Shown here: positions 22,198 through 61,441 of the stretch, piece after piece
How the letters are laid out: each line of letters begins with the position of its first letter
Position numbering within the stretch: the stretch's first letter is position 1
IMG/VR virus record: IMGVR_UViG_3300014613_000025
Location: 1 to 64,000 of that record
Direction: 5' to 3' (one strand)
Length of the DNA: 64,000 nt
Source of the DNA: a virus
Lineage: Duplodnaviria; Caudoviricetes
Translations under genes and position numbers: made by a program
The notes under the pieces: model-generated
What the model was told of the DNA's origin: nothing
Seen by the model: the letters and a program-made list of their open reading frames with translations, nothing else
The model's database searches: none

Positions 22198-23535
22198 ATG
22201 GCTGACGTTCTCCTGGTCAATTATGACAATGGGTCGCACATCGCTCAACCGCCCCACGGGTTGGCGTATCTCGCGAGCGCGCTTGTCAACGCGGGCCACA
22301 ACGTTGACGTGTGGGACGCTGGCGTTACGCACGAGCCTGCCGACAAGTTGCGTGAACACATCAACGCAACCAAGCCGTCAGTCGTGGCAGCGTCCGTGAT
22401 CGGCGGATACTGGCAGCATGCCCAATTGCTAGCGCTCAGCAAGGCCGTGAATGCCTCGCAACATCGTGACCGCTTGTGGTATGTCATCGGAGGACATGGC
22501 CCTGCCAGTGCCCCGGAGTACTTCCGCAAGGTAACGGGTGCCGATACCGTCTTTAGCGGCGAGGGCGAGGTAACGTTCCCCGCGCTGTGCTCCGCTAAGG
22601 ACCGCCCGCAATTCGCGCACGGTGAGACTGTTGACGTTGACGCGGTAGCGTGGCCCGCGTGGGACTTGTTTGACATGTCCGTCTATAGGTTGCAACGGTA
22701 TCCCAAGACGTTGCCGACCGACTTCGCTATGCCGGTGTTGAGCGGACGAGGGTGCACGTATAAGTGCTCATTCTGTTTTCGCCACGTGCCGGGATTCCGC
22801 GCGCGTCAACCCGCTGCCGTTGCCGATGAGATTGCTTGGTTGCAAAGCGCACACAATATGACGTACGTCAATTTCGACGATGAACTGCTCATGAGTGGCC
22901 CCAAGCGCACGCGCGACTTGTGCGAGGCAATCGGACCACTAGGCATTCGGTGGATGTGCAATGGTCGCCTTGACGTTGCAGCGAAGCACCCTGATCTGTT
23001 GCCATTGATGCGAGACGCGGGAGCGACGTTCATCAACTACGGGGTTGAGTCTCTCTCGCAACCCGTGCTCGATGCCATGAACAAGCGCCTAACTGTGGAG
23101 CAGATTCACGCTGGCGTACGTGCTACGCTTGACGCTGGTTTAAGTCCGGGCCTCAACGTCATGTGGGGTTGCCCCAATGACACGGTTGAGTCGTTGCGCA
23201 TGTTGGTCGGCTTCCTACGTGAGTATGATGATGGCGCGCAGATTCGCTCGATCAGACCGGTAACGCCCTACCCCGGCAGTCCGCTGTTCGACCTGGCGGT
23301 GCGCGAAGGGCGTATCAAAGACGCCGAAGACTTCTATGTGCGACACGTCAACAGCGACCTTGCAAGCGTGCAGTGGACTGGCCTAGATGACGACGCGTTC
23401 CACTCCGCGCTATACGACGCTAACGCCGACCTTGTGGAGTACGGTTGCGAACGGATCGAGGCCGACCGCAAGCGTCAATTGTCCAAGTTATACCACGAGC
23501 GCGATGCCTCGTGGCGCGGGTTCAGACACACCTAG
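22198..23535 (+). CDS. cobalamin-binding radical SAM enzyme (class B methyltransferase-like)
   Basis: N-terminal PPHGLAYLAS...IGGHGPA B12-binding domain; GRGCTYKCSFC; YGVESLSQ; TPYPGSPLF. Confidence 0.88.
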   Translation: MADVLLVNYDNGSHIAQPPHGLAYLASALVNAGHNVDVWDAGVTHEPADKLREHINATKPSVVAASVIGGYWQHAQLLALSKAVNASQHRDRLWYVIGGHGPASAPEYFRKVTGADTVFSGEGEVTFPALCSAKDRPQFAHGETVDVDAVAWPAWDLFDMSVYRLQRYPKTLPTDFAMPVLSGRGCTYKCSFCFRHVPGFRARQPAAVADEIAWLQSAHNMTYVNFDDELLMSGPKRTRDLCEAIGPLGIRWMCNGRLDVAAKHPDLLPLMRDAGATFINYGVESLSQPVLDAMNKRLTVEQIHAGVRATLDAGLSPGLNVMWGCPNDTVESLRMLVGFLREYDDGAQIRSIRPVTPYPGSPLFDLAVREGRIKDAEDFYVRHVNSDLASVQWTGLDDDAFHSALYDANADLVEYGCERIEADRKRQLSKLYHERDASWRGFRHT

Positions 23536-23544
23536 GAGGGTAAC

Positions 23545-25392
23545 GTGATGCCGTGGCCGAATGATTACCGTCAACCCGCGACGCGGGCAATGCCGCAACC
23601 GTCAGACGTATTCGACATCAACGCAGAACTTGAAGCGTATGGGTGCGGTCATCTGGCGGTGAAGGAGGAGCCGGTGGGACTATTGCAAGAGTGGTTTGGT
23701 GGGCCATTCGTGTGCCTGTTGTGCGGGGAGAAAAGCGTGGATGTGGTGGAGTACCAAGAGAGGAACAACGACAGATGGTCACACAACATGTTCGGCAAAC
23801 TTGTAACTGTGGCCTATGCCCCAAGAAGCGTCCGCGCTAAGTATCAGTGCTACAGTTGCGGTGCTACCATCGTGGTGGACCGATGAACCACAACCCAAAC
23901 GGCGACCCTGGTAGTCACAACCCTCGCGGCAATCCTCAACGCGGGTTGCGACTGCCAACGATTACGATTGACCTGCCGCACATCTACTTGCCACAGTTTA
24001 CGGCCTGCACGTCATGTACGCATTGCCTTGACGCCGAAGCGTGTGACGTCGCCACGTGTGACCGGCCAGACGCTTGTGCGTGCGACAGTGCCAACGGTTG
24101 CGAGTCATGCGAAGCGGGCGGCATCTGTCGCCACTGCGGCGGCAAGGACGACTATGCGGAGCGTGGCAAAGACGGACTAGTGTGTTGCTGGCAATGCGTG
24201 GATAAGGAGACGGCGTGAGACCCGTTCGCCACACGTCAACCGATGCGCTCCTAGGCCATCGGGTCGCTTTCACCGGCAGTGCTGATGTGCTTAGGTTCGA
24301 GTCGCCACGTGGCCCGGTAGACACCATGGCGAAGCAAGCGACAGGAACACTACTCAAGACGGTCGCAACCAACGGGGTGCGGCCCGATAACCGCAACGAC
24401 GCATTGTGTGCGGACCCTATCCACGAATTGCGCGAAGTGATGGCGGAACACTCCGTCAACGGGTCGTGGATGATGTCGCGACTTGCCGCTGAGAGGCTGT
24501 GGTCTCGTGCTGTGGTTGATGCGTTGTGGCCCGACCATGACGCTGGCGTGGCAACGCTGGACATCAATGGTAAACGCATATCGGTTGACGTGGCCCGCAA
24601 CGATACGCCTAAGCGCATCGCGTCCAAACTTGTGGACGCCGTCAATTCGTCGAGCGTTGGGCTCGTGGCTAGCGTTAGGAAGGAACCAGGATGACAGACC
24701 CACACAGATACCTAGTCAAGGTTGGGGATATCGTCGAGACGTATCACGACGGGAGGGCAACGGTAACCAAGGCCAAACACGAGGGCCACGTGCAATACGA
24801 CTTCGACAGCGGCGAACTGTACTACACGCTACACACGTGGGAGTCGTGGGTCAAGGCCATCGACAGCGGCGAAGTCAAGGTGATACGCGCCCTAAACGCG
24901 TCGGGTTAGTGGTATGACGTCAACCAAGTGGCCGCCGCACCCATGCTCGCGTTGCCAGTGTGAGGACTGTTGCGAGACAGGAGCGTATCGAGACTTCTAC
25001 GTGCGCAGTGCGATTGACGGGTCGTGGTGGTGCGAGGTGTGTTGGTTGTATGACGTCGAGGGTTGCAATTCAGATTGCGAGCGCCCACCGTATATTGACA
25101 TTGTCTACAGGGAGGTGTGAGCATGGGCGTCACGTTGGAAGAGTACGATAGACTTGAACGCGAGGTAAAGACCGACTACGTTCGACACACACCAACGCAG
25201 CGGTTGGCTCTTGGCCTTGTGAGGTTATCAGAACTGACGGCAGAGCAAGACATAGCGTGCACTGATGATGTGCTATACGGCCCTGGTGGTGGCCCAGATT
25301 CACACTACTTTGAGAAAGCAGACATCTTGCTATTGTTGTCGCTTGGTTGGCGCTGGCATGCAACCGTCGAGTCGTGGGCGTTTGTGGTATGA
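23545..25392 (+). CDS. run of small hypothetical ORFs (23545-23886, 23883-24218, 24215-24694, 24691-24909, 24914-25120, 25117-25392)
   Basis: coupled starts/stops; two are very Cys-rich. Confidence 0.55.
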
Positions 25393-26153
25393 CACCCGCC
25401 GAAATCCTAACCTCGATAGGCCACGAACCGCGCAACCCGCGACCGTTCGGCCCAACGCGAGACGGCACCGCTACGGCCTGGACGTGCGACGGTGGAACCA
25501 TCTACCTCGACAGGTCACCAACTACGCCATACGTCGGGCGCGGGTCTGCCATGCTCGCCATCGACGACGCGAGACGTGCGCACCTAATCGAGCGCCAAGC
25601 GTGCGGTCGGCGAGTGCTTGACTTCGGGTCTGGCCTTGGTGGGTTCGTTGGCCGTGTGCGTGAGTGCGCAGCGTTTGCGATTGGCTACGAACCGTCCGCT
25701 CCCGATGCCATCACATGGTCATCGGTGGCCCACCAAGGCCCCTACGACATCGCAACAGCGTGGCATGTGGTAGAACACCTTGACGACCCTATTGAGGCCC
25801 TGACGCGCCTGTCAGGCATCATGGCTCCCGGTGCGCTACTGGTCGTCGAAGTGCCCCATGCGCGCGATTGGTTGCTCCACTCGTGCGGGGCGTTCCGTGC
25901 GTTCTCGCTGTGGTCGGAGCATCGTATTCTGCACACGCGAGAGACGTTGCGGTCGCTGCTACAATGTGGAGGCTTCGACGTCGAACGGATTGAGGCCGTG
26001 CAACGCTACCCGCTCGCCAATCACCTGCACTGGCTAACGCGTGGGATGCCAGGTGGGGTTGATGTCAACGAGAACCTTGACCGCGAGTATGCGGCAATGC
26101 TTGCGGCGCGAGATGAGACCGATACTCTGATCGCTTGGGCAAGGAAGGGGTGA
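25389..26153 (+). CDS. class I SAM-dependent methyltransferase
   Basis: VLDFGSGLG, WHVVEHLDDP, LVVEVP, QRYPLANHLHWL. Confidence 0.88.
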   Translation: MTPAEILTSIGHEPRNPRPFGPTRDGTATAWTCDGGTIYLDRSPTTPYVGRGSAMLAIDDARRAHLIERQACGRRVLDFGSGLGGFVGRVRECAAFAIGYEPSAPDAITWSSVAHQGPYDIATAWHVVEHLDDPIEALTRLSGIMAPGALLVVEVPHARDWLLHSCGAFRAFSLWSEHRILHTRETLRSLLQCGGFDVERIEAVQRYPLANHLHWLTRGMPGGVDVNENLDREYAAMLAARDETDTLIAWARKG

Positions 26154-27462: not shown

Positions 27463-28491
27463 ATGTTCGACACTCACGCATACGAGCGCATGCACGGCCT
27501 CACGCACGGTAGTCTGTTCGAGCGCTACCGCTCACGCAAGCCAACCGTGTGGAACATTGAGACTACCTCGCATTGCAACATGCGTTGCCGGATGTGTCCA
27601 CGAACCACGATGATGACGCGTAAGCCGTCGACGATGCCTCTTGGCACGTTCGCTAACGTGGTATCGCAACTGACGGCCCCAACGCGAGAGGCCGAGATGT
27701 CGTGGCGATGGTTCTGCGAAGACGTATTCGGCATAGCTCACGATGACGCGCCAAGCGAGAATCACTTTTACCTGCACACCATGCCATGGGTCGTGCAACT
27801 ACACGGCTACGGTGACCCGCTACTCGACCCGCACATTGCGGAGCGTATTGCGTTGCTTACCGAACGAGGGTTGCGCTCCTACTTCTCGTGTAACCCGGCC
27901 AACGTGGACCAAGCGCGTATCAACGATTGCCTGCGCGCTGGCCTTGGCGTGGTTAAGTTTAGCATCGAGTCAACCGATGACGAGCGGTTCAGGTCGATAC
28001 GTGGCAACAAGGCGACATTCACGCAAGCGTTTGACGCCGTCAGGAACGTGGTTGACGCGAGAGACCATGTCAATCCACATACCCAAGTTGTCGTGACCAT
28101 GCTTGACCTTGGCGCGAGCGACAGCGCTGCCGAATTCGCACGACTTCGCGAAGCGTTCGATGGGGTTGACGTGTATCTGTACCACAAGAGCGAGGATACC
28201 CAGTGGTTGAGACCAGACGGGACACACGGCACCAATTCAATCCACTGGTCAACGCCGTGTCTACACCCCTGGACGTCGATGACCGTGCTCGCCAACGGCG
28301 ATGTCGGGGCTTGTATGGAAACGTTTGACGAGGGAGAATTCGCACTCGGCAACGTCAACGATGCGTCGCTAGAGGACATCTGGAATGGCGAGGCGTATGC
28401 CGCGTTGCGACGCGCCCACCTGACCGGCAAGGGGTTGCCGCTCAAGTGCCAAGCGCGTTGCGATATGCCTGTGATTGGAGGGAGACAATGA
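27463..28491 (+). CDS. radical SAM enzyme with SPASM/Twitch domain
   Basis: CNMRCRMC; GYGDPLLD; C-terminal CLHPW...GDVGAC...GNVND.SLEDIWNG...CQARC. Confidence 0.88.
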   Translation: MFDTHAYERMHGLTHGSLFERYRSRKPTVWNIETTSHCNMRCRMCPRTTMMTRKPSTMPLGTFANVVSQLTAPTREAEMSWRWFCEDVFGIAHDDAPSENHFYLHTMPWVVQLHGYGDPLLDPHIAERIALLTERGLRSYFSCNPANVDQARINDCLRAGLGVVKFSIESTDDERFRSIRGNKATFTQAFDAVRNVVDARDHVNPHTQVVVTMLDLGASDSAAEFARLREAFDGVDVYLYHKSEDTQWLRPDGTHGTNSIHWSTPCLHPWTSMTVLANGDVGACMETFDEGEFALGNVNDASLEDIWNGEAYAALRRAHLTGKGLPLKCQARCDMPVIGGRQ

Positions 28492-29797
28492 ATATTGAAG
28501 ATGACACCCTGTGCGACGTGTGCTATCATTCTGGCGTTACCACTGTTGAGATGGTTGGCATTCAGGTGTGCGCCGATTGTTTATGGTCTGCTAGCCAAGC
28601 AATGGCTAGACACATGCAAAGCCATGGCCTAACGGACACTGACGAAAGCGCAAACGCCATAAGTGACGCGTGGCGATTGGCCGAAGCGGCAATGTTGGCG
28701 GCAACGGAGGGCGAATGAAGACGCTAGCGTTTGAGGGTTACAGTGATGATACGTTCGGTGAATACCGCACAACCATGGACGATGCCAGCAACAGTGCCAA
28801 CGGTAAGCCCATCGTGTTTTCGGTGCGCTCGCCATCGACAGGCGATGGCCTTTTCGTGTGGGGACTGTACGCCAACGATGACGCGCCAAGGTCAACGCCA
28901 GGTTGCTGGGTTATCGGTATCCAACAGTTAGACGAGGACGTCCTGTTGCCGTTGTGGCCCATGTACTGGCGCACAGCCAAGAGCGGGTATTCGCCTATCC
29001 TTGAGATTGACGCCCCTGACGATGTTGTTGTGAAGTACGAATCGCCAGGGAAGGAAGGGCGATGAGCAAGCAAGAGATTATCAGTTGCGACGTGTGCAAA
29101 ACTGCCGAAGAAGTAAACGACGCCACGCGTGACGGACGATGGTGTCACGTCTTCATAGAACTAACGCCCAAACTGTCGGGGCGCAAAGGCCGCTCTTACG
29201 ACCTATGCCCAGAGTGCGCGTCCCGCGTCAACGACGCGTTGACAGAGCGATGAGCATCGCGCGCAAAGTCTCGCCGCCTATCGCGCTAGCAATAGCGGTT
29301 GCCGTCGTGCTGTTCGCGTTCGCTGCGCCCACCGTGCAAGCGTTGCTGATTGTGTGGGCGTTCTGTGATTGGCGGGGCTAACGGCGTGCGTGCCGATATA
29401 CGCAACTGTGATTGTCGAGGTGGGCCTTGAGCCAACTTGTTTGCGCGCTCAAAGTGCCCAGTTTAGGCAAGGAAGGTGCGCGATGGTAATCAACGTAACA
29501 CTGGAACACTTCAACGGTCACGGGTTCGAGTGTTCATTCGACCCGCCCATGACCGAGTGGAAACTACACGGGGTGTCGTACAAGTGGACAGAGGCCAGAG
29601 TCGTCGAATGTCTGAATTCGTTTACGGGCAGACCTATGTTGATTGAGGAACCTGGGCCTAACGAACACGTACCGGCTAGCGTGCTAACCGTGGGCCGCGT
29701 CGCGCGTGAACTGGTGCGCGTTCTCAACAACCTAGTCGCGCGAGAATGTATCATCGCTGACGGGTTCAGGTCGGCACACGTTAGGGCGTGGCCGTGA
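28488..29797 (+). CDS. run of small hypothetical ORFs (28488-28718, 28715-29065, 29062-29253, 29250-29381, 29483-29797)
   Basis: coupled overlaps and RBSs. Confidence 0.55.
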
Positions 29798-30450
29798 TTC
29801 TCATCTTCGGAGGTGGGCCGATATCGGATGCGCTAACGCATGGCTTGCCGAACACGCAACGCTTGCATAGGTCAGAGGTTGACGTTACGGATCTTGACGA
29901 AGCCGCGTGGGCATTCAAAACATGGCACACCTCCACCTCCGTCATCGTGTGCGCGGCCCGCAACCCCAAACACGGCGATGCCTGGGCCTGGCGGCCTTTC
30001 CACGAGACCCACAACGACGGGGTTGACTCGTGGTCCGTCAACGTCGCCGGGTCCGCTAACGTGGCCCGTGCGGCCATTGCCGCGTGGTTGCCCAAGGGCG
30101 TGCGCGGTAGCATCGTCCTGATGGGCTCGATACACGGCGAAGTCTCGCCTGACCCGCGACTATACGACGGGGCGCACAAACCCTGGGAATACAGCGCCAC
30201 GAAAGCCGCGCTGCCTGCCCTGGCGCGATACGTCGCCGCTCACTACGGGCGAGACGGTATCAGGTGCAACGTGCTGGCCCCTGGCGGGGTCGACACGACG
30301 TCGATGCAGTCCTATGCGCATCGGTCGCCATCGGGTCGCATGGTGCCCCTACAAGGCGTCGTGAGCGCAGCAAAGTGGCTTTGCTCGCCAGACTCTGATG
30401 GCGTCAACGGGACCGTTGTTCGTGTGGATGATGGGTGGTGCGCGGTCTAA
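29794..30450 (+). CDS. short-chain dehydrogenase/reductase (PtmA-like)
   Basis: IFGGGPI, NVAG, MGSIHG, YSATK (YxxxK), IRCNVLAPGGV, NGTVVRVDDGW. Confidence 0.82.
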   Translation: MILIFGGGPISDALTHGLPNTQRLHRSEVDVTDLDEAAWAFKTWHTSTSVIVCAARNPKHGDAWAWRPFHETHNDGVDSWSVNVAGSANVARAAIAAWLPKGVRGSIVLMGSIHGEVSPDPRLYDGAHKPWEYSATKAALPALARYVAAHYGRDGIRCNVLAPGGVDTTSMQSYAHRSPSGRMVPLQGVVSAAKWLCSPDSDGVNGTVVRVDDGWCAV

Positions 30451-37888: not shown

Positions 37889-37978
37889 ACCAGACAACCT
37901 AGCCCAACCGCATATCATTACGCTGGCACTGCACGGAACCACCGATGTTCAGTGCTTTGGCGGGGCTGAAATGTATGG

Positions 37979-38443: not shown

Positions 38444-38617
38444 GGTGCTGTGTGGGATAGCGTGTGGGCTGGTGGCAACCTGTGGGAGCTATTCGTTGAC
38501 AGCGTGGAATAGTGCGGCGTTTTGGACGGTGGGCCATTGCTGGGCCAAGGATGGGCCTAGGACGCGTCGGGGTGGCGCCATGGCATCCAAGGCCAACCTG
38601 TGGCCGAAAGGGCCGTC

Positions 38618-41600: not shown

Positions 41601-41897
41601 TGGTGACCTTGTCTCCGAACGTGACCTTGTTTGTTTGAGTCTTCATGGTACAAGTTACCTTTGCAGGACGTGTGCCAACCTGACGGCTCACTCGAATTCG
41701 GCGAACAGGTCAGGTTCGCCATCGGCGTCCACCGGGCGACCCTGGGCGACCCAATCGGCCTTGAATGCAGCGTGGCAAGCGGCAACGCGAGCGGATTCCG
41801 CTGCATCCGCGCGTCGCTCCTTAGCGGTGCGGTAGTAGTTCGCGGGGTTGCTGATGTAGGCGTGGACGTCTGCGAAGCTGGTTTGGTTGTTGTTCAT
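38618..41897 (-). CDS. block 3 small ORFs (41688-41897, 41389-41646, 41063-41344, 40890-41054, 40631-40897, 40412-40579, 40179-40379, 39952-40143, 39676-39903, 39306-39587, 38960-39274, 38618-38950)
   Basis: nine have their own sigma54 motif; 40412-40579 (55 aa) is not in the ORF track; 38960-39274 (ANTILAQMGG...VRLDPSDTYTVEF) resembles a widespread phage/ICE hypothetical. Confidence 0.7.
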
Positions 41898-41928
41898 GGT
41901 GCAATCCTACCTAGCACGCACTGTGCCA
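39290..41928 (-). promoter_or_regulatory. block 3: nine sigma54 promoters
   Basis: 39290 and 39603 TGGCACGGCTCGTGCA; 39932 TGGCACGCGGAGTGCA; 40159 TGGCACGAGTCTCGCA; 40395 TGGCACGCTGAGTGCA; 40595 TGGCACGACGCGTGCA; 41372 TGGCACGCTGAATGCA; 41662 TGGCACACGTCCTGCA; 41913 TGGCACAGTGCGTGCT. Confidence 0.88.
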
Positions 41929-41997
41929 ATACCCCAACGACACCGCGAAGCGCTACGTCTACCGACGAAAGCGCGTTCCACTGAGTGGATTCATACC

Positions 41998-42331
41998 ACG
42001 ACTTTCAAGTCGTGCCTGTGCAAAGTTTGCCGGTTTGGCCAAAAACGTATGGTCACTGTTCCGCGATACGCTATGAAACAAGGGTTAGCGTAACTTGCGC
42101 ACACCTGAACACCGCACGACTTTCAAGTCGTGGTGTTGCTGGCATGCCTTGTTTTGTGGCGTTTGGCAAAGGGTACAAGTAATGCTGGTACCCTTGGGGC
42201 CACGGCCCGCAACGGTGTGTGCGCTTGGTAGGACATGTGCGCTTGCCATGGCGTCAATGTCATACTGAACAAGCCAAACCGCACGACTTGCCGTAACCTG
42301 TAGGCTTTAGCCACCACGACTTCGATGTCAT
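41998..42331. repeat. palindrome cluster C: 4 copies
   Basis: 41998 and 42116 ACGAC-TTTCAA-GTCGT; 42248 ATGGC-GTCAAT-GTCAT; 42316 ACGAC-TTCGAT-GTCAT. Confidence 0.8.
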
Positions 42332-42441
42332 GCTGAACAAGCCCCAATGGTGCACGGTTGTTGTGTTTGGCTTTAGTTGTGCGGATATCGTGGTAGGCGG
42401 CGGGTATGGCGTGGATGTCGTGGTGGGTGTGCGTTCAGTGT

Positions 42442-43524
42442 CTAACCGACGATGCGCAACCCGGCATCGGCGACCATGGCCCGCACGATGTCAAGCGGAA
42501 GGTTGACCACCGCGACGCACCAGCCGTATCCGTAGCGCGTACGGCCCTCGTATTCATCGAAGCCAATCCGGCGCAGGGCGCGGATAGCAACGCCACGAGA
42601 CGTCGCCTCAACCTCATATTCCCCAGCGGTATCCTGGTGGCTCAACTTGGTCGCAAGCGCACGGACTGCCTTGCGTGTCGAGTCGTCTCCGGTCAAGGTC
42701 GCGAGGCAATCGCCACCCATGGGACCGTGCGAGGTCAGGAAGACGTTGCCAATCCTCGCGCCGCAGCACACGCATGAGATGTTGGCAAAGGTTCCGCCAA
42801 GCGCTTCCAGGGCCGCTGGCGAGCCAGCAACCGCGAATCCTTCGAGGGCCACGCCGTCAAACTTGTCGCGGATCTTCTGGGTAAGTCGCATCGTCGTCTC
42901 CCTCTTCTCGTTGTCCTTGGTCGCAACCGTTGGAGTCGAACCAACCTTATACCACAATCACCCTGGTGGGCGCTCGCCGGAGCCTTTTCGTTGTGGGCTG
43001 CGATGCTTGGTGAGTATGCGAACGGCGTGCCAAGCTATGCGGCACGCTGGCTTTCCAACAGCGCTAGCCGCCAATACGCGGCCTCAAGCCGCTCGCCCAC
43101 ACGGAGGCCGTGCCAGGTGTGGGTTACGCCAGCGAACCGCCTATTGTTTAGGTCGCGAATCTCGACCTTGAGGTCAAGGATGCGACGTTGGATAAGCTCA
43201 GGAGTCATGCGGGTTGTGTTCGTCATGGCTCTACTCCCATGCACTCAGCGTGCCAAGCGCTCAGCGCGTTACCCTGAACCCCTGCGAGGTTGCGTTCAGG
43301 TAGACGTTCTCGGCGGCGATGCGGCAGTTGTTGCGGTGCGTTTCGGCATCGAGCAGAGCTTGCGGCCACTGCTCAGGTACACCGGCGCAGATCGTAGCGT
43401 ACCGCAGCGCATTGTATGCGTGAATGGCCTTATCGTAGGCTTTCGTCGCCTTGTTCATGGCAACCTTGGCAGCGCGCGCGGTCGGGAAGGTCTTGGTCTC
43501 GGCGGGGTTGGCTTGGTTCGTCAT
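42442..43524 (-). CDS. block 4 small ORFs (43261-43524, 43035-43226, 42442-42891)
   Basis: two have own sigma54 motif; the third has a GGGAG SD downstream of the tRNA-like RNA and CVCC...GGDC cysteines. Confidence 0.7.
42918..43002 (-). ncRNA. CCA-ended tRNA-like RNA without D or anticodon arms
   Basis: acceptor CGCAGCC/GGTTGCG + A + CCA; T arm GTTGG-TTCGACT-CCAAC; 5' end 16 nt below the -12 element of promoter 43017. Confidence 0.75.
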
Positions 43525-43555
43525 GGTGCAAACCCACTATGCACGCACCATGCCA
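43017..43555 (-). promoter_or_regulatory. block 4: three sigma54 promoters
   Basis: 43017 TGGCACGCCGTTCGCA; 43240 TGGCACGCTGAGTGCA; 43540 TGGCATGGTGCGTGCA. Confidence 0.88.
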
Positions 43556-43623
43556 CGCAACACAAAAACGCGAAACGTCTACTCCCACAGGGACAACGTT
43601 GTTACACTAAGTAGATTCACACC

Positions 43624-44023
43624 ATGGCATTCAAGTCGTGCTATTGCAAAAGTTGCGTGATTGACCCAAAAGTGTATGGTCATTCCAAACGCGTCCTCAA
43701 CGTTTCCGACATGTTGCGCGCCTAGTGAGTCATTCTTGACCCATGGCAAAACGGTCCTGGTCTGCACGAAGTGTCTTGTTTTGTAGCGGTTTGCGAAACG
43801 TGGCGGGCTAGGTCTGCCAGGTGTCGGGTTGTCGCGGCGAGACGATAGCCAACGGCCTACCATGACAGCGGTGTCATAGCAAAACGTCACATTAGCGAAT
43901 CCTTCGAGGTTTACGCTATGACATTGAAGTCATAGCATCGAGGTCCAAGACGGCTACGATGTGCTGGCGTGGCTTGTTCTGTAGCGATTGAGGTACGCGT
44001 GGCGGGTATGACATTGATGTCAT
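43624..44023. repeat. palindrome cluster D: 4 copies
   Basis: 43624, 43862, 43918, 44008 (last is TATGACATTGATGTCATA). Confidence 0.85.
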
Positions 44024-45005
44024 AGGGTCTTGGCGGAGCGAAGGATTCGCGACGAAAGCGAGGTCAGCGCGTCACGGACCTTGCCGTCGCCATCGTCGTC
44101 CGCGCTATTGACGGCGTCAATTAGTCGCGACCATGCGGCTTCCTCTGCTCCCTCGTTGACGTGTAGCACGCCTGCGGCATGGTCGAACGTGCCAGGAAAC
44201 GGCTCGTAGTCGCCGTCAAAGGCCAGGCAATCGTCAAACGCGGGGTCGAATACATAGATGGTCAACCCGCACGCCTGAATCTCGCCTACGCGGAATGTCG
44301 CCATCAGATGCCGCGACGCGCGCGCTCCTTTTGGAACAAGGACAATTCGGTGAGGTATCTTTCGCCGCCCATGCGCTGAACCCAGCTATTCGTGGCGGTA
44401 ACGGTGAGCAGTCCTTCAAGAGCGAGGGAGCAGTCGCGATGCGACCACACCAGCTCGGAGTCACTCATCTTGCGGATGCGGTCGGCGATGCGCTTGGTTG
44501 CCTTGTCGGTGTTCTTCATGGTGCTTTCCGAGTATGCGAACGCTATGCCATCGTTGCCGTAGCCTCAAAACCGCCAGGCTCGACACCCAAGCCATGACAC
44601 GAATGTCATACCTAAACGCCGTTTCGCGATATTCGTGAGGTTTTCGCTATGACATTGGTGTCATGCTTAGGCGAGCGGTTGTCGGCTCGCTTCGCAATGT
44701 GCCTTTATTTGTAGCGATTATGCGCGGAGCGGGTGGTATGACATTGGTGTCATGGCAGGCTGTGGTCATGCGTACATGGCGGCGTTCAAGGCCAGCCACG
44801 CTGCATCCACATGCGCGTTCAAGGTCTTGGCGTAGAGCCAGCGCGCCATGTTCACAGCCTTGCGGCTAGGCTTGCGGCTGCTGCTAGTGACGCACTGGAT
44901 CCTGATCTCACCCAGGCAATCACAGGCGAACAAGTAGCCCCCGACTGTAACCGTCATGGGTGCGCCGCTGCCGTCCGAGTAGACTTCGATTGCTGTGGTT
45001 TTCAT
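44020..45005 (-). CDS. small ORFs 44766-45005, 44304-44519, 44020-44304
   Basis: first two start 14 and 17 nt below sigma54 motifs. Confidence 0.65.
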
Positions 45006-45122: not shown

Positions 45123-45165
45123 AGGTTGGCGGCTGACCGGACCTAAACGCATTGGGCCTGGTGGT

Positions 45166-45767
45166 ATGAGTGAACCCAAACCAGGTGAACGGCCCGACGT
45201 TGAAGGCGTCTTTGAACGACTCCGCCAACGGTTGGATGACATTGTGCCGATGCCACGCAAGACAGTCGAGGTGCTTGCCACGCTGCTAGGTGGCCTTGAC
45301 GCTAGGCGAGAGGTCAGATGGCGCAAGCGTGAACATCGAGTCAAGAACCGCAACGAACGGCAACGGCGCGCACTGTCGCGCAGGAAGGCGAGACGATAGC
45401 AATGCAACAGAGACCAGCAAAGGAGCACGATACCATGGCATGCACGAAGCGTATCGCGAAGGCTGCGAAGCACTTGGACAAGGCCGCCGACCTGTTGGAC
45501 GATGCCATTGACGACTACTACAACGAGGAGGTTGGTCAACGTGTTCCCACGCGCGAGGACGTTATCGCGCATGCGGCAAAGGCCATCCTAGACAATGTGT
45601 CAGCGCGCGGTGCCGTGGTCCTGTTCGGCCAACGTGACAACTGTGTGGCATTGACTGACACTGGGCCACTTCGCGCATCGCCTGCGGCCCAGATAGCTTC
45701 GCTGCTAACACTGGCCGTGCGCGAGGCAATCACGCAAGCGTATCAGGAGGCCAACGGCGATGACTGA
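45166..45767 (+). CDS. two hypothetical proteins (45166-45399, 45435-45767)
   Basis: first starts 24 nt after CCTAAAC; second has AAGGAG RBS and overlaps the cytidylyltransferase start. Confidence 0.55.
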
Positions 45768-46881
45768 CAACGTCGTAGCCATCATCCCAGCGCGAGGCGG
45801 CAGTAAGGGACTGCCACGCAAGAACCTGGCAATGGTTGGCGGGTTGCCGTTGCTCGCGCGCGCTATCGAGACCTGCCGCGACGCGGGTATCGCTGACATC
45901 GTGGTCACGACAGACGATGACGAAATTGCAGCGGTCGCACAATGTCATGGCGCGCAGGTTGTTCGGCGACCGTTGGACTTGGCTAGCGACACCGCCACAA
46001 GCGAGGATGCCATCTGGCACGCGCTAGACGTGTGTGGCATCGATAGCGGGACGTGTGCGTTCGTGCAATGCACGACTCCGCTGTTGACGTCTGACGAGGT
46101 GGCGCACTGCGTGGCGTTGGCAGAACTAGGCCGCAGCGCGTTTACGGTCTATCCGCACCACAACGTTTTCTGGTACGATGATGAACCGCTTAGCACACTG
46201 CCACGCAAGCCAAGACAGCAATGCAAGCCGCTGTGGAAAGAGACTGGCGGATGCTATGCGTTCCCGGTCGAGGCATTCATGCGCAAGCGCTCGCGCTTCC
46301 CGACTGAGACCGTTATGGTCCGCTCAGAGTATGGCATTGACATCGATGATGAAAACGACCTGGCGGCGGCCAATGCGATTGTGCGTCGCGGTTTGACAAG
46401 CCCTGGCTTGCGTAGCCGATTGTCGCGCGTTCAGTTGCTCGTCCTAGACTTCGACGGTGTGCTAACAGACAACCGCGTGTTGACCGACAGCGATGGGCGC
46501 GAGGTGGTATCCTGTTCCAAGGCTGACAGTTCGGGCATCATACTGCTCCAACGCGCTGGCGTTCGGGTTGTGTGTTTGACTCACGAGCACGACAGGTCGG
46601 CACTGTTACGGTGTCGCAAGTTGGGCATCGAGTGTGTGCAAACGTCGGGGCTAAAACCGTTAGCCCTAGAGACAATGCTACAAGGCACACCGCTAGAGCA
46701 AGTCTGCTACGTTGGCAATGACGAACCCGACGTTGCGTGTATGGCAATGGTTGGCGTGAGCATGGCCCCGCATGATGCGGAACCGTGCGCGCTTGATGCC
46801 GCTCAGGTTGTGCTAAAGCGCAACGGTGGAGACGGCGCCGTACGCGAGGCGTGTGAGATGATTCTGGAGGCGCAATGCTAA
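45760..46881 (+). CDS. neuA: acylneuraminate cytidylyltransferase fused to KdsC-like HAD phosphatase
   Basis: AIIPARGGSKGLPRKNL, VQCTTPL, IDIDDENDL; then LVLDFDGVLTD and YVGNDEPD...GGDGAVRE. Confidence 0.92.
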   Translation: MTDNVVAIIPARGGSKGLPRKNLAMVGGLPLLARAIETCRDAGIADIVVTTDDDEIAAVAQCHGAQVVRRPLDLASDTATSEDAIWHALDVCGIDSGTCAFVQCTTPLLTSDEVAHCVALAELGRSAFTVYPHHNVFWYDDEPLSTLPRKPRQQCKPLWKETGGCYAFPVEAFMRKRSRFPTETVMVRSEYGIDIDDENDLAAANAIVRRGLTSPGLRSRLSRVQLLVLDFDGVLTDNRVLTDSDGREVVSCSKADSSGIILLQRAGVRVVCLTHEHDRSALLRCRKLGIECVQTSGLKPLALETMLQGTPLEQVCYVGNDEPDVACMAMVGVSMAPHDAEPCALDAAQVVLKRNGGDGAVREACEMILEAQC

Positions 46882-47252
46882 CCGTCTATGCAATCCAAAA
46901 CGCCGATGGGCAATGGCTTCGCAGCAAGGGATACGGCGGCTGCGGCCCGTCGTGGGTTGACGATATCAGCCTTGCGCGCCTATACCAGCGCATCGGAACG
47001 GCGCGCGGTCGCGTTGGCTACTACGTTGGAGCGTATCCAGACTTGCCGCCTCCCAAGTTGTTTGCGTTTACGTGCAACGAGGGTGTGGAACTTGACGAGT
47101 CCGCTCGCGTGGCAAAGGTAGCTAAGCACAAGTCGACACAGAAGAAACGAAAAGAATTGGCAGACGCTAAGCGGAAACTGAAGGACGCGAACGACAGGTT
47201 TGCTAAGGCCAAGAAAGACTTGGAGGCATTGAAGTGCACACCGTCAGAGTAG
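46875..47252 (+). CDS. hypothetical protein
   Basis: overlaps both neuA and neuB; YAIQNADGQWLRSKG start, basic helical tail. Confidence 0.6.
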   Translation: MLTVYAIQNADGQWLRSKGYGGCGPSWVDDISLARLYQRIGTARGRVGYYVGAYPDLPPPKLFAFTCNEGVELDESARVAKVAKHKSTQKKRKELADAKRKLKDANDRFAKAKKDLEALKCTPSE

Positions 47253-48103
47253 GCAATCGCGAGGTTGGTGAGGGCAAACCGTGCTTCATTATAGCGGAGA
47301 TCGGGATCAACCACGATGGCGATGTTGACGTTGCCAAGCGGCTGATTGATGTGGCGGTGTCGGCAGGGTGTGACGCTGTCAAGTTTCAGAAGCGCACACC
47401 TGACTTGCACGTTGCACCAGACAAGCGAGACGTCTTGCGTGATACCCCGTGGGGCGAGATGCGCACGATTGACTACCGCGAGCGCATCGAATTCGGCCAC
47501 GCCGAATACGACGACATCAACGAGTATTGCTTGCAGCGTGGTATCCTGTGGTTCGCGTCGCCGTGGGACGTGCCGAGTGTTGACTTCCTCGAACAGTACA
47601 ACCCGCCATGCTACAAGATTGCGAGCGCTGGCATGGTCAACAAGGCCCTACGCTGCGCCGTCTGGGCCGCAAGACGGCCCGTCATCATGTCGACGGGCAT
47701 GGCGACACTGGCAGACATTGACGAGGCGTACGATGACCTGGCAAGCGACAGGTTGACGCTATTGCATTGCACGAGCAACTACCCAACGACGGACGATGAG
47801 ATTGACCTACCTGTAATCGAGACACTGCGGCAGCGCTACCGCGTACCGGTTGGTTACAGCGGCCACGAGGTTGGACTGTTGCCGTCTGTATTGTCCGTTG
47901 CGGCCTGGCGGGCTTGCATCGTTGAAAGGCATGTGACATTAGATCGAGGCCGAAAAGGCAGCGACCACGGCGCAAGCATTGAGCCGCATGGGTTGCACTT
48001 GCTCGTGCGCGACATCAGGCGAGCGGAGCGGTTGCGCGAGGGTGGTTGGAACAAGCGGGTTCATGCGTCGGAGGCGGCGCAGATCAAGAGGTTGAGAGGA
48101 TGA
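47234..48103 (+). CDS. neuB: N-acetylneuraminate (nonulosonate) synthase family, short form lacking SAF domain
   Basis: FIIAEIGINHDGD, AVKFQKR, YKIASA, IMSTGM, LLHCTSNYP, GYSGHE, IVERHVTLDR..GSDH. Confidence 0.93.
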   Translation: MHTVRVGNREVGEGKPCFIIAEIGINHDGDVDVAKRLIDVAVSAGCDAVKFQKRTPDLHVAPDKRDVLRDTPWGEMRTIDYRERIEFGHAEYDDINEYCLQRGILWFASPWDVPSVDFLEQYNPPCYKIASAGMVNKALRCAVWAARRPVIMSTGMATLADIDEAYDDLASDRLTLLHCTSNYPTTDDEIDLPVIETLRQRYRVPVGYSGHEVGLLPSVLSVAAWRACIVERHVTLDRGRKGSDHGASIEPHGLHLLVRDIRRAERLREGGWNKRVHASEAAQIKRLRG

Positions 48104-48300
48104 CACCCAAGCAAGCAACAATGGTTCTGGACGTCATGCGGACGCATGAGTGGCATCGCGGGGAAGAGGGGACGTGGTGCCAATCGTGCAATGGCGGATA
48201 TTCGATCTATAGCCATAGTAAGCACCGCACTCCTAGTCACAAGCGTGGATGCAAGTGGGCGCGCGCTGTTAGGTTGTTGGAGGGATTGTTGGCGTCCTAA
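48100..48300 (+). CDS. small Cys/His hypothetical protein
   Basis: coupled to neuB. Confidence 0.5.
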   Translation: MTPKQATMVLDVMRTHEWHRGEEGTWCQSCNGGYSIYSHSKHRTPSHKRGCKWARAVRLLEGLLAS

Positions 48301-48350
48301 ACCCGTTTGACGTATTAGCATAGGACAACAGAACAACAGGACAGGAGAAC

Positions 48351-50234
48351 ATGCGACAAGTATCAGTGCTGGGTGGAGGTGAGATTGCACCGGAGATGAT
48401 TGCGGTATTGCAACCCGCGACGGTGTCAGTCATGGAAGCGGCAATGCCCGCTAACGTGGGGCCACGCTCGCGCGCTATCCTTGAGTCAGTGGAGCCCATT
48501 GGGCACTTTGGCATCACTGGCAATGGTGCGTTTACGCTGGTCCACAGCGGTCAAACGTGGGACTCGTTCGACGCTGGCAAGGAAGAGTCGCTACGCAAGG
48601 AGATTGAACTAGGCCACCCGCTAGTCATCTTCGGATGCGGCGCAGGCAACCTGCTATTTCGCGTTCGCACTATCTGTCAATCTGTGCGCGACGGGGTTCC
48701 GCCAATCATCATCTACGAGCCAAACGCTGGCGTGCTCAAGGCGTTCCTGTCCGTGCGCTTCCCGCTCCAAGGTGTGAGTGTCTGTTGCGATATCGACGAC
48801 TTCCGCCACATGCTGCAAACGCTGTTGCAGGGTCAGTCATCGTTGACCATCTTTCATACTGGCGACTACGTGATGCCCGCTGAGATTGCGGAGCAACGAG
48901 GGCCAATCGCCGTCGCTAACCAAGAGGCTTACGCGCTGTTCTCCGATGTCGTGCGGCGCATCGTTGACGCTGAGCAAGTGACCATGAACACCATCGCAGC
49001 GCGAATGGGCGAGTGGATTCGCAACGTGGCAGAGAACCTCGACGCATGCGCGGGACAAGTGCCAGCCATGTCGTTGGCGGGTGCGTTCGTTGGTGCGCCC
49101 GCGTTCATCGTCGGGGCAGGGCCATCGCTGGACCGTAACGGGCCTTTGCTGGCGTCGTGTTACGAGAAGGGGCTGGTCATCACCGTGGACGTTGCGGCGC
49201 GAGCGTTCGTCAAGCACAACGCGCAACCGCACCTATTCCTGGCGGTCGAAGGGCGCGACTTGTCAGAACACCTCGAAGGCGTCGAGTGGATTGACACTGT
49301 CCCGCGAGCGTTCTCGCTAGAGGCTAGTCCTGCGGTGTTGAAGATCGGCAATGGCCCACTGTTGCCTTGGGCGGATAGCAACTTTTCGTTCAACGCCGTC
49401 AACCACCAACTGCTAGGTTCCGAGGGATTGCCGATTGGTGGCAGTGTCACAACCGCTGCGTTCTTGTTTGCCGAAGCGTTCGGATGCAACCCCATTATCC
49501 TTGTGGGCCAAGACCTGGCAAACACTGGCGGCAAGCGTGCGGCGGATGGCGTGCTAGCTGACAAGTTGCATGCACTCGAAGAGCATGGCGAGGTTGCCGC
49601 ATGGGGCGACCCTGCAACGAAGATTCCCGATACGCCGCAGTGGTTGCACGCGCGTGTTTGGTTCGAGCAACGCGCTGCTAGGTTGGCAAAGGACAAGCCG
49701 CATATCAGGCTCATCAACTGCACCGAAGGTGGGTCACACGTTGACGGGTTCGAGGACTTGCCGCTTGCGGATGTCATCGAGGAAATGCAAAGCGTTAGCA
49801 TCGACATCAAGGGTGCGTTGAATGACGTTCAACCCGTGTGGAAAGACGGTATCGACTGGTTCCGCGATAAGCAAGTAGAGAAACTGCAACCCATTGCAGA
49901 CGCGGCATTCGCGACGGTTGCCGCCTGCGAGGCAGTAGCGTCAATGATTCGCACAGACAAGGATGCGGACGTGTCTGAACTGATGGCGACCCGGACCGAA
50001 AATGAGAACGCGTTTAGGGTGTTGGCCGCGCCCCACGAGATGTTCACCGGCTGGACCCAAGCACTCATCATCAACCTACAGGACATTCGCAAACAGTCGA
50101 CTAAGCACGAGATGGTTGGCGAGGATGCCGCCGCGTTCTTTGACACTGAGGCAGGCATCTTCCGCGCGATGGGTGATGCTGCGGTTGAACTTCGCAACGT
50201 GCTCACACGTCAAACGGAGAAGGCCAATGCGTGA
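48351..50234 (+). CDS. Maf/DUF115 (MptE-like) family putative nonulosonate glycosyltransferase
   Basis: AFIVGAGPSLDRN, ITVDVA, GGSVTTAA, IILVGQDLA, INCTEGG; C-terminal helical region. Confidence 0.82.
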   Translation: MRQVSVLGGGEIAPEMIAVLQPATVSVMEAAMPANVGPRSRAILESVEPIGHFGITGNGAFTLVHSGQTWDSFDAGKEESLRKEIELGHPLVIFGCGAGNLLFRVRTICQSVRDGVPPIIIYEPNAGVLKAFLSVRFPLQGVSVCCDIDDFRHMLQTLLQGQSSLTIFHTGDYVMPAEIAEQRGPIAVANQEAYALFSDVVRRIVDAEQVTMNTIAARMGEWIRNVAENLDACAGQVPAMSLAGAFVGAPAFIVGAGPSLDRNGPLLASCYEKGLVITVDVAARAFVKHNAQPHLFLAVEGRDLSEHLEGVEWIDTVPRAFSLEASPAVLKIGNGPLLPWADSNFSFNAVNHQLLGSEGLPIGGSVTTAAFLFAEAFGCNPIILVGQDLANTGGKRAADGVLADKLHALEEHGEVAAWGDPATKIPDTPQWLHARVWFEQRAARLAKDKPHIRLINCTEGGSHVDGFEDLPLADVIEEMQSVSIDIKGALNDVQPVWKDGIDWFRDKQVEKLQPIADAAFATVAACEAVASMIRTDKDADVSELMATRTENENAFRVLAAPHEMFTGWTQALIINLQDIRKQSTKHEMVGEDAAAFFDTEAGIFRAMGDAAVELRNVLTRQTEKANA

Positions 50235-52560
50235 CAAGACTCGCAATGCTGTGCTCGAACCTGACCGCATGCTAACCCCTGCGCTGTGGTGTGCCATTGC
50301 CGCGAGCGATGGCGTGAGCGATGAGGTTATCAGTCACTACGCGGCCATCATGATCGAGTCTTGGTTGGGCCGGTGGATGTGATGAGGGTGGATACCATGC
50401 AAGGGCCAACCGTTGGAATGCAAGAGGTCATCGACAACATGATAGCGCGCATGTTGTTGATGAATCACACTGACCCGCAGGTGAGGGTGTGGACAGACAA
50501 CGAGCGGCCTAACCCTTGGCGCGTAGCGATGGTTACTGGCCGGGACTTCATGCGAGGCGGGTCCGCTGGATTCGACGGCACAGCGCTTGACCTGGCACTA
50601 GCACTGGTGGTGTTGTTGGGGAGTCTGTCAGACGTCCCGCTTGACGGAGTCATCCAAGAAGTGCCGAGGCGCAATTGATAATCTTGCCCGACAATGGCAC
50701 TGCCACGCTGTGCGAACTATGCCACAAGCAAGAGGCGATGCAGTACGCGCATGACATGCCCCCGTGGATGCCTAACGCCACGGGTTGGATATGCTACGAG
50801 TGCTCGGAGATAGACTTTAGGCCAAACCCTCGATGCGAGTGTTGCGGCTGTGAGAACGAGGCCGACACGTTCGAGCCAGACCCGTACACAACCGAGGTGT
50901 ATGGGCCAAAACCTGGCGAGCAAGAGTGGCAGTGCAATGACTGTTGCGGCCACAGACTGGACGACATCTGAATGATCTCACCCGACAACGAGTCAGACTT
51001 GCGCTGGTACTTCAGCGAAGCGCGCGGGGCATGCGGCGTCAAGTCGCCACTCGGCGCGCAGTTGGACATCATGCGTACCGGTACGATGCGCGGCAAGCAC
51101 GAGCGCGTAGTGGTGGCCGACATCAACGAGCGCACCTTGATGGCCGCTGAGCGCGCTAACCGTATTGGCAAGCGCTTACGCAAACTAGCACCCAACCACG
51201 TTCCGATACTGCGTCTGCAATACGACGCAGACGAGGCCGCCAATGGGTGCCAGGTTGGCGCGTCAAGGTTGCTCGATGGCGTACGGGTAGCGCTTATCGT
51301 GTCAACGCCCATCGCGTTGCGGTTGCATAACGCCATAGCGCGGACGTCATCGCGCAAGCATCCTGAGCAGTCGCCACCCACGCGGGTCATGTGGCTTGCG
51401 TGGCTCTGTCGCCGCGCCAAGGACAAGAAAGCGGAGCGTGAGGCTGAGACGCTAAGCGTGCTGTTGACGTCAGCACAAGGGCTCCTGAACGCGGCACATG
51501 CCGCTTACGAGGCAACGTAATGTCGTACTTATACGCCGCCCCAGGGTTGGGCTTTGACCCGTTCCGGGTAGAACCGTTCGACCCAAACATTACAATCTAC
51601 ACAACCATGACACAACCAATCCCAGCGACAAGGTTGGCGGCCGAGGCAATGGCAATGGTGACGTGTGCGCAGGCGGTTGCCGCGCTGTCGCCAGAGTCAC
51701 GTAAGCGCGTCGCCGAATGGTTGCTACGCGAGTGCGAGCGAGAACAGGAAGAGGTAACGTGATGTCGTATACGAACAAGGAAGTAAAAGAGAACGAGCGG
51801 CTATTGGATAGCAAGTGCAAGGTTCCGTCGTTTTCACTACCGATGCCGCGTGACGCAGACATCCAAGCAATCCTAGACGCTATCGAACGGTTGCGCAAAG
51901 ACGTCGACACGCTTACGGTTCAGGTCAATGACGTAAACAGTAGATGCGCGAGCATAGCGCGCACATTGCGAAGTGTTGGCTGGAAGGCATAGGAAGGCGC
52001 AACGTGAGAGACGACACTGTCACGCCATCGCAACTGCTAAAGGCCGACTGGTCCGCGCTTGTGCGCCTTGCCAAGTCGCTAGGGCTACGCGTGCGCGCTG
52101 GCCCAGAAGGCCACGACGAACGCAAGCGTGAGGCGTTGGTTGCCAAGATGTTGGATAGGATGATTGAACTTGAGGATAGTGATGCGAGGGCGCGAGAAGG
52201 ACTGAAGCACAAATGACTACGATTGAAGCCAAACACGCTACGTGTGAGGATGACGATGGCCCGATGTCGATTGCCTCGTGCGCAGCGCTTGATGGCGTTA
52301 GCACTGGTGCCGTTCGGTCGATGCTCGATGTCGTCGATGCGTTCGTTGACGCCGCGTCAATGACGGATTCGTTCGTGTGGGAATTGGGCATGCACGCTGA
52401 GCAGCATGCGGTGCCAATCGGGTTCACTGCGATATGCCCTCAGTGTGATATGTTCTTTGAGGTCAAGTTGGGCAATGTCGGCAGACCTAGGCGGTTCTGT
52501 TCTGACGAGTGCTGTTTCTGCTATAACCACTGCATGCAATTGCCAAAGGTTTACGCGTGA
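50227..52560 (+). CDS. run of hypothetical ORFs (approx. 50227-50382, 50382-50678, 50675-50971, 50972-51520, 51520-51762, 51759-51992, 52005-52216, 52213-52560)
   Basis: coupled starts/stops; no confident domain; some starts uncertain. Confidence 0.5.
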
Positions 52561-61427: not shown

Positions 61428-61441
61428 TAAGGAGCCCAACT

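Follow-up and report, generated by a model that had tools for sequence, protein, structure and literature searches.

Bacteria are known to use nonulosonic acids and Maf transferases to decorate their flagella and surfaces. What use would a phage have for genes of both kinds? This question is raised by a 64,000-nucleotide (nt) stretch of viral DNA, here termed the window, that covers positions 1 to 64,000 of the IMG/VR record IMGVR_UViG_3300014613_000025 (Duplodnaviria; Caudoviricetes). The record is a single-contig virus genome of 73,113 base pairs, which CheckV assigns to its linear class and rates as 78% complete, and it stems from a myovirus, an uncultured groundwater phage. Positions 45760-50234 hold a module encoding, in this order, a NeuA-HAD fusion protein, an open reading frame (ORF) of 125 amino acids (aa), a NeuB-family synthase, a 66-aa ORF and a Maf-like protein. 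An initial annotation, made from the sequence alone, had proposed that these enzymes make a nonulosonic acid activated with cytidine monophosphate (CMP) and attach it to a protein of the virion or of a host appendage. Our analysis of families, predicted fold, related loci and phylogeny points to a phage-borne system for O-glycosylation with ulosonic acid, of the type known for flagellin, in which a phosphatase-dependent route, radical SAM tailoring genes and, in a relative, a fusion of NeuB to Maf would be new. We tentatively read the module, with a probability just short of one half, as a copy of a flagellin O-glycosylation pathway of the myxobacterial type that phages have kept for a long time and whose acceptor is a virion protein.

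Predicted enzymes of the module

The last gene of the module is predicted to encode a full-length, three-domain Maf-type transferase. Its central domain matches PF01973 (MptE-like/DUF115) with 91.7 bits against a cut-off of 34.6 (residues 225-392), and the core carries the GAGPS and GQDL motifs. The N-terminal domain family PF20157 gave no match, and the FlagModPseD model scored 49 against a cut-off of 670. An AlphaFold (AF2) model built on 19 homologues (predicted local distance difference test, pLDDT, 86; predicted template modelling score, pTM, 0.80) was compared with the PDB using Foldseek, and the best match, extending over the whole length, was the Maf of Magnetospirillum magneticum (5mu5; E 4.8e-16, 687 aligned columns, template modelling score 0.50). 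Identity to flagellar Mafs amounts to 40-44% in the catalytic core, 19-28% in the N-terminal domain and 13-18% in the C-terminal helical domain, which is also the fastest-evolving part of the protein within the phage clade described below. The best reading is that this protein transfers a CMP-activated, nonulosonate-type sugar to protein, because its closest cellular relatives are Maf genes that lie beside flagellin genes. No Flagellin_N match was obtained in the 73 kb of the record, and no flagellin-like stretch was seen on it. Likewise, no adaptor of the GlfM type (10.1101/2023.12.03.569772) lies beside the phage Maf, and the small ORFs flanking it are not conserved among its relatives. As a separate observation, the N-terminal domain (window 48351-48900) contains between residues 90 and 125 a conserved GxGxG ... 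EP(D/N) pattern (G95, G97, G99, E123, P124) that recalls a Rossmann-type nucleotide- or S-adenosylmethionine-binding site.

The synthase matches PF03102 with 229.2 bits (cut-off 22.1) over residues 37-267, and the catalytic motifs of its TIM barrel, IIAEIGINHDGD, KFQK, YSGHE and ERHVTLD, align with those of 6ncs and of PseI (8h2c). A C-terminal SAF/antifreeze-like domain, present in canonical NeuB, PseI and LegI, is missing from the 289-aa protein, and TIGR03569 was matched only over positions 1-273 of 329; the closest structure in the PDB is itself a short NeuB of 290 aa (6ncs). Scores remained below the equivalog cut-offs for both TIGR03569 (229.7 versus 399.65) and TIGR03586 (195.4 versus 340.25), and the enzyme can therefore be typed neither as an N-acetylneuraminic acid (Neu5Ac) synthase nor as a pseudaminic acid (Pse) synthase. 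The enzyme is one of a very large group of tightly conserved proteins of ~289 aa, with 55-58% identity to members from Acidobacteriota, Actinomycetota and other groups, and wherever we checked, the members of this family adjoin a HAD phosphatase or a NeuA-HAD fusion. The pairing suggests an uncharacterised minimal ulosonate pathway and, in the case of short NeuB with NeuA-HAD, points to a very widespread two-gene route to ulosonic acids in Acidobacteriota, Actinomycetota and Myxococcota. Two cellular loci may be recorded for their own sake: a cell-wall glycopolymer locus of Amycolatopsis with a bare two-gene NeuA-HAD and NeuB unit (L142, 6811-8867), and a cell-envelope glycan locus in an Acidobacteriaceae metagenome-assembled genome (MAG) with a short NeuB paired with a phosphatase (L143, 8001-9363).

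The first enzyme of the module combines a CMP-ulosonate synthetase with a phosphatase, and each of the two domains is conserved in homologues from phages and from cells. The NeuA domain matches CTP_transf_3 (PF02348) with 70 bits (cut-off 22.6), and its N-terminal nucleotide-binding motif PARGGSKG..KN is invariant in four homologues from phages and Amycolatopsis; it falls below the PseF equivalog cut-off (94.7 versus 205.7). Residues 219-372 form a HAD domain that is matched by models for KdsC and for KDN-9-P phosphatase, in each case below the curated cut-off (82.6 versus 106.95 for TIGR01670, 88.8 versus 208 for KdsC, 70.8 versus 180 for KDN-9-PPhBT). HAD motif I is intact (DFDGVLTD, pattern DxDGxxTD) and invariant in the phage and Amycolatopsis homologues, and motif IV reads GNDEPD, a GND variant shared with the best PDB match, 3mmz; 1eyr and KdsC are also among the best structural matches of the fusion protein.

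These results bear out the family assignments of the initial annotation, namely NeuB (PF03102), NeuA-HAD (PF02348 with a KdsC-like HAD) and a Maf-like protein (PF01973 with the 5mu5 fold). The ORF coordinates also stand, as does the description of an overlap style shared with small phage ORFs: neighboring genes overlap by 4-19 nt (45767/45760, 46881/46875, 47252/47234, 48103/48100, 50234/50227). The order with the synthase first has to be corrected, since NeuA-HAD comes first and NeuB is the second enzyme.

A phosphorylated route and candidate tailoring genes

A phosphatase is needed only if the synthase uses a sugar phosphate, and thus marks a sugar-6-phosphate route (PMC6200933). Searches of the 73 kb turned up no NeuC, no PseB-type dehydratase, no PseC-type aminotransferase and no SIS isomerase. 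Because of the phosphatase fusion and the lack of NeuC, PseB and PseC matches, we favor a phosphorylated route of the type known for 2-keto-3-deoxy-D-glycero-D-galacto-nononic acid (Kdn) and for animals over a route to Pse or legionaminic acid (Leg). The most economical reading is a Kdn-like pathway in which a sugar phosphate and phosphoenolpyruvate are joined via a ulosonate phosphate. In this scheme, NeuB would condense phosphoenolpyruvate with a host sugar phosphate to a ulosonate phosphate, in the simplest case converting mannose-6-phosphate to Kdn-9-phosphate; the HAD domain would strip off the phosphate, and the NeuA domain would convert the ulosonate into the CMP-sugar. Four enzymes encoded upstream, two of the radical SAM type, a methyltransferase and a short-chain dehydrogenase/reductase (SDR), probably decorate the sugar, which Maf would then move onto Ser/Thr hydroxyls of a protein. 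The acceptor would most likely be a protein of the phage particle, with host flagellin as the main alternative.

The four putative tailoring genes lie 15-23 kb upstream of the module in the window, and their assignment draws on related phages. Contig L002 holds an uninterrupted block of B12-binding radical SAM enzyme, class I methyltransferase (Methyltransf_23, MT23), NeuA, NeuB, Maf, SPASM-domain radical SAM enzyme and SDR, in which the SPASM homologue directly 3' of Maf is 52% identical to the window's protein and the SDR gene follows it. The same enzyme set recurs in L006 and L156; there, too, MT23 adjoins NeuA, and the B12-radical SAM gene is close by. The B12-radical SAM enzyme is probably a sugar-tailoring enzyme of the C-methylase or dehydratase type. 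A suspected frameshift in the SDR gene was rejected, as the glycine-rich motif stands at the N-terminus of the 220-aa ORF.

A promoter-like motif, CCTAAACSYRT, has 15 copies where 4 would be expected. Perfect matches stand at a fixed short distance 5' of the start codons that head the B12-radical SAM, MT23, SPASM and NeuA-HAD operons, and another lies 55 nt 5' of Maf (Table 1). The shared motif, the translational overlaps, the gene block of L002 with the equivalent sets in L006 and L156, and a NeuB-Maf fusion in L003 all speak for functional coupling of these genes. Since other enzyme operons are preceded by it as well, the motif appears to mark an expression class and not solely the sugar pathway. 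Two genes that lie among those for the tailoring enzymes, one for a Thg1-like tRNA-His guanylyltransferase and one for an RNA ligase, share this motif class. A different repeat, the palindrome ATGAC-N6-GTCAT, forms clusters upstream of the module with 12 exact copies against 0.04 expected, and the related groundwater phage L006 (13291-18522)/L007 carries three clusters of three. We had considered a tie between these enhancer-like palindromes and flagellar loci of Polyangiaceae and rejected it, as ~65 such loci contained no copies.

The small ORFs of the module region gave little to work with. The 121-aa ORF has no Pfam, NCBIfam or PHROG match, while its GC content by codon position is of the coding type; the 125-aa ORF has no family match and no homologue in the related phage loci, and for the 66-aa ORF no homologue was found in relatives. 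3' of Maf, a 180-190-aa family with an LRWYFSEA motif (orf182 family) is conserved in all five related phage loci and is a probable Q-antiterminator- or sigma-like late regulator. The zinc-ribbon protein encoded next has a clear match in L002 and a weak one in L003. A third radical-SAM-type protein of 446 aa, encoded 3' of Maf and ahead of the ParB-like and terminase genes, shows a CxxxCxxC motif (GCKNKCMFC, aa 178-186) with weak family matches and no homologue in the related phage loci. The terminase, portal and head genes begin ~5 kb 3' of the sugar module; past the major head protein follow adaptor, sheath, tape measure and baseplate hubs, and then the contig ends.

Table 1. Features of the module and its surroundings, in window coordinates.
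Feature	Position	Strand	Remark
Promoter-like motif CCTAAACGCAT	45142..45152	+	heads sugar operon; ATG ~14 nt 3'
121-aa ORF, function not assigned	45402..45767	+	8-nt overlap with NeuA-HAD start
NeuA-type CMP-ulosonate synthetase fused to KdsC/Kdn-9-P-type HAD phosphatase (predicted), 373 aa	45760..46881	+
125-aa ORF, function not assigned	46875..47252	+	lies between NeuA-HAD and NeuB, overlapping both
Short NeuB-family ulosonate(-phosphate) synthase without SAF/AFP domain (predicted), 289 aa	47234..48103	+
66-aa ORF, function not assigned	48100..48300	+	gene call on identical contig L004
Second CCTAAAC-type motif	48296..48306	+	55 nt 5' of Maf start codon
Full-length three-domain Maf-type ulosonic-acid protein O-glycosyltransferase (predicted), 627 aa	48351..50234	+
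B12-binding radical SAM enzyme	22198..23535	+	PF02310 + PF04055
Class I methyltransferase (MT23), tailoring probable	25347..26153	+
SPASM-domain radical SAM enzyme, tailoring probable	27463..28491	+	PF04055 + PF13186
SDR, tailoring probable	29788..30450	+	adh_short_C2
Thg1-like tRNA-His guanylyltransferase	21094-21840
RNA ligase	26157-27200
ATGAC-N6-GTCAT palindrome clusters	34063-44753
orf182-family gene	50972-51520	+
Zinc-ribbon protein	52213-52560	+
Radical-SAM-type protein, 446 aa	52557-53897	+
TerL	55286-56668
Portal, Mu-type	56685-58091
MuF/S78-protease fusion	58995-60950
Major head protein	61259-62551
N6_N4_Mtase DNA methylase	7830-8816		profile match

Relatives in phages and in Polyangiaceae

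Five diverged phage contigs also hold the module (L001, L002, L003, L006/L007 and L156). In L001-L003 it lies upstream of the same terminase-portal-head set, and in L006/L007 and L156 it has phage-type neighbors and a gene of the orf182 family, while the stretch that was read shows no head genes. L003 has NeuB and Maf merged into one protein of 941 aa. The phage Mafs are 36-52% identical to each other. An exhaustive HMMER search returned 7,076 representative Maf relatives, of which a handful belong to the phage clade. In a FastTree phylogeny of 36 rows, from which most near-duplicate cellular rows had been left out, the Mafs found in phage context group together with a support of 100; their clade has a long stem and is sister to Mafs of the Polyangiaceae type. 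These cellular sisters sit between flgL/csrA and flagellin genes, and across the loci of cellular relatives flagellin or FlgL is encoded in the flanks at 53 of 66 genome loci and at all 37 metagenome loci of at least 9 kb.

Roughly 60 of the 80 best cellular Maf matches come from MAGs of Polyangiaceae or other Myxococcota. Five genomes from these groups hold a short NeuB, a NeuA and a KdsC-like HAD, often within 10-30 kb of Maf. In four of these genomes the short NeuB is 50-51% identical to the phage protein from end to end, and in the fifth 37%; their NeuA proteins reach 44-55% and their HADs 32-38% identity to the phage domains. By tblastn, the HAD of two of them adjoins, and is apparently fused with, an SDR that is 31-38% identical to that of the phage, and a homologue of MT23 is encoded directly 5' of NeuB in one of the two (G002). 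In a third genome the HAD is fused to a GmhA-like isomerase, beside MotAB. The phage set thus mirrors a flagellar glycosylation system of the Polyangiaceae group, to which the radical SAM genes look like a phage-side addition, and a host of Polyangiaceae type is probable. Searches for portal homologues in 301 Polyangiaceae-family genomes produced few and distant matches (10, at 26-38% identity). This mirror image had escaped the initial annotation, as had the tailoring genes and the phosphorylated route. The fused locus of the Polyangiaceae MAG L144 (G005:C169, 11678-12772), a KdsC-like HAD joined to a GmhA-like SIS isomerase beside short NeuB, NeuA and MotAB, raises the possibility of a ulosonic acid made from heptose-7-phosphate, i.e., with 10 carbons.

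Maf-like genes in phages are not restricted to this clade: 40 viral contigs in IMG/VR carry them. A second architecture is found in 40-kb integrase-bearing phages (L010-L014; L012, 7025-11140), where NeuB, NeuC, NeuA and a trimmed Maf-like gene of 437 aa stand directly before the terminase. A third occurs in low-GC phages (L022, 603-11209), with an oxidoreductase, a DegT aminotransferase, a NeuB-like and a PseB-like protein and a full Maf with a Maf_flag10_N domain, again directly before the terminase. Judged by gene content, unrelated phages have joined three biosynthetic routes to one family of transferases, each time at the same place in the genome. Among the deposited phage genomes in INPHARED there was no DNA match and no tblastn match for Maf, and 3 records had a NeuB; at this sensitivity, the records of cultured phages thus lack the cassette. 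Our literature search found no report of a phage-encoded Maf or of nonulosonate protein glycosylation by phages. A full donor pathway with its transferase, long held in phages of at least three lineages and by three routes, would imply a phage use for acidic protein sugars that is so far undescribed.

The acceptor and known systems

That the contig is an assembly chimera, or that host DNA was captured recently and serves no phage function, might be suggested by the cellular origin of the closest homologues; we consider it nearly negligible. The GC content stays at 0.55-0.61 along the whole window with no step, the codon-position GC of the module genes equals that of the terminase and other phage genes, and independent ENA and Logan assemblies contain the same gene string at 100% identity. 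The module also keeps its synteny with the terminase-portal-head set in L001-L003 and turns up again in L006/L007 and L156, and its proteins are just 30-58% identical to any cellular homologue. The initial annotation's view of the genes as integrated and not freshly captured is thereby upheld, by the phage-like codon usage, the single deep clade of phage Mafs and the NeuB-Maf fusion in a relative. Its own doubt, that the DUF115 protein might be an MptE-type pterin diphosphokinase, can likewise be set aside: this reading, or another non-glycosyl role with three genes that are unrelated passengers, is highly improbable. MptE gave the Pfam family its name, and the phage protein bears a weak likeness in sequence and fold to the archaeal HPPK (MptE) of Methanocaldococcus jannaschii (8sd5), but this likeness is limited to the Rossmann core (~190 columns, E ~1e-3), whereas the 5mu5 Maf is matched over the whole length. 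MptE is moreover a single domain of ~220-240 aa as opposed to three domains in 627 aa, the neighbors are NeuB and NeuA with no folate or pterin genes nearby, and the clade is sister to flagellar Mafs and includes the fusion to NeuB. Transfer of the sugar to phage DNA as a hypermodified base that protects against restriction is very unlikely, in agreement with the initial annotation. The cassette does lie between replication and packaging genes and near DNA-methylase-type genes (N6_N4_Mtase and a DUF4942 protein), and glycosylated hydroxymethyl or hydroxy pyrimidines are known from phages (PMC13326640). Against this, no hydroxymethylase of the thymidylate synthase type was found in the 73 kb, the relatives of Maf are protein Ser/Thr transferases, and neither that paper mentions nonulosonic acid nor did the literature searched contain such a case.

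Transfer to protein, the part of the initial proposal that the flagellin-adjacent relatives favor, leaves the choice between virion and host appendage. We give a virion protein slightly less than an even chance, which makes it somewhat likelier than host flagellin; the remaining probability falls to acceptors other than virion protein, flagellin and DNA. In favor of the virion, Maf and a sugar pathway (NeuC-NeuB-NeuA in L012, PseB/PseC-type in L022) lie directly upstream of the terminase in two further, unrelated lineages. A complete donor pathway would free the phage from the host's flagellar regulon, which argues for a virion acceptor, and the long stem and diverged C-terminal domain of the phage Maf suggest that the acceptor has changed. 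Several points weigh on the other side. No acceptor was identified, and no flagellin-like or clearly Ser/Thr-rich structural protein is on the record, which breaks off in the baseplate at 78% completeness and so lacks the tail fibres; to judge by its length, the 38-kb ENA contig ERZ27247121 k141_659873 may continue beyond this end. About ten ORFs, including the probable late regulator, separate Maf from the terminase, CCTAAACSYRT was not found 5' of structural genes, and, in contrast to other phage cassettes, this one has a Maf with the complete set of three domains seen in flagellar Mafs. Against a firm identity for the sugar stand equivalog scores that are all below their cut-offs, and the fusion of HAD to a GmhA-like isomerase in some putative host clusters hints at another substrate. 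Finally, an IMG/VR portal search for relatives returned only L149, which shares the head module, is more distantly related and lacks the cassette; the cassette is therefore accessory. A search of the phage for a flagellin mimic or a Ser/Thr-rich structural acceptor produced nothing convincing.

Some of the same observations would fit host flagellin as the acceptor, where rewriting or overloading the flagellar glycan could block superinfection by flagellum-binding phages, stall motility or bring about lysogenic conversion. The retained three-domain architecture and the flagellin-adjacent cellular relatives speak for it, as do the position of the genes outside the virion operon, upstream of the probable late regulator and with the enzyme-operon motif, and the putative hosts, which are flagellated and own NeuB, NeuA and HAD of the same type. 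Mafs are, furthermore, specific for their cognate flagellins (PMC11339370). We nevertheless regard this explanation as rather unlikely. A host that already owns the pathway has no obvious need of a phage-borne donor pathway, new flagellin would change little of an existing filament within one lytic cycle, and the 73 kb checked showed no integrase. The long stem branch, a C-terminal domain nearly unrelated to those of flagellar Mafs, the recurrent place beside head genes in other phage lineages and the lack of a conserved GlfM-like adaptor count against it as well. Should the flagellum be the target after all, the module would represent a new kind of motility manipulation by a phage or a new form of superinfection exclusion.

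A virion acceptor, in turn, would bear on phage stability, host recognition and evasion of immunity or predators, and would offer glyco-engineers compact, self-contained O-sialylation cassettes; acidic ulosonic glycosylation of a virion is reported for no phage in the literature we found. A bolder version of the virion reading holds that a sialic-acid-like sugar new to science, derived from a host sugar phosphate and tailored by radical SAM enzymes (C-methylated and/or deoxygenated, and O-methylated), coats the particle by means of a repurposed flagellin glycosyltransferase, and that this arose repeatedly in unrelated phages. We consider this combination possible, if doubtful.

Among known systems, the flagellin O-glycosyltransferases of the Maf type (M. 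magneticum 5MU5, Clostridium botulinum, Shewanella Maf-1/Maf-2) share with the phage protein the PF01973 core with GAGPS and GQDL, the three-domain fold and the link to NeuB and NeuA. The phage Maf differs from them in having no flagellin gene on the record, no PF20157 match, no GlfM-like partner and no TPR domain, and its C-terminal domain is essentially unrelated in sequence. The phosphorylated Kdn and sialic acid pathways, as in Bacteroides thetaiotaomicron (Kdn-9-P synthase and the phosphatase BT1713), Prymnesium parvum and vertebrates (NANS-NANP-CMAS), have in common with the module a NeuB-family synthase, a KdsC-type C0 HAD and a CMP-synthetase. The arrangement of the phage fusion, NeuA N-terminal and HAD C-terminal, is that of vertebrate CMAS (PDB match 3ewi). 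The HAD-type domain of CMAS is inactive, whereas that of the phage keeps the catalytic DxD motif. The phage synthase further differs in lacking the SAF/AFP domain, and radical SAM, SDR and methyltransferase genes are additional.

The flagellar clusters of Polyangiaceae MAGs share short NeuB, NeuA, HAD, SDR, the MT23-like gene and Maf (28-36% identity) with the phage. There, an SDR or a GmhA-like isomerase is the partner, fused or directly adjoining, of the HAD, which in the phage is fused to NeuA; no radical SAM genes were detected in these clusters, and their Maf lies beside flagellin genes. Glycosylation by a phage of capsid or tail proteins of its own has a precedent in mycobacteriophages, whose virions, as Freeman and colleagues reportedly described in 2023, are glycosylated by phage glycosyltransferases. 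That case involves GT-A/GT-B families and neutral sugars and no ulosonic acid. The other phage cassettes likewise combine a sugar pathway with a PF01973 transferase just upstream of or inside the head-packaging module. They employ either the NeuC route with the trimmed Maf or a PseB/PseC-type route, whereas the clade represented by the window is set apart by its phosphatase route, full-length Maf, radical SAM tailoring genes and a location outside the virion operon.

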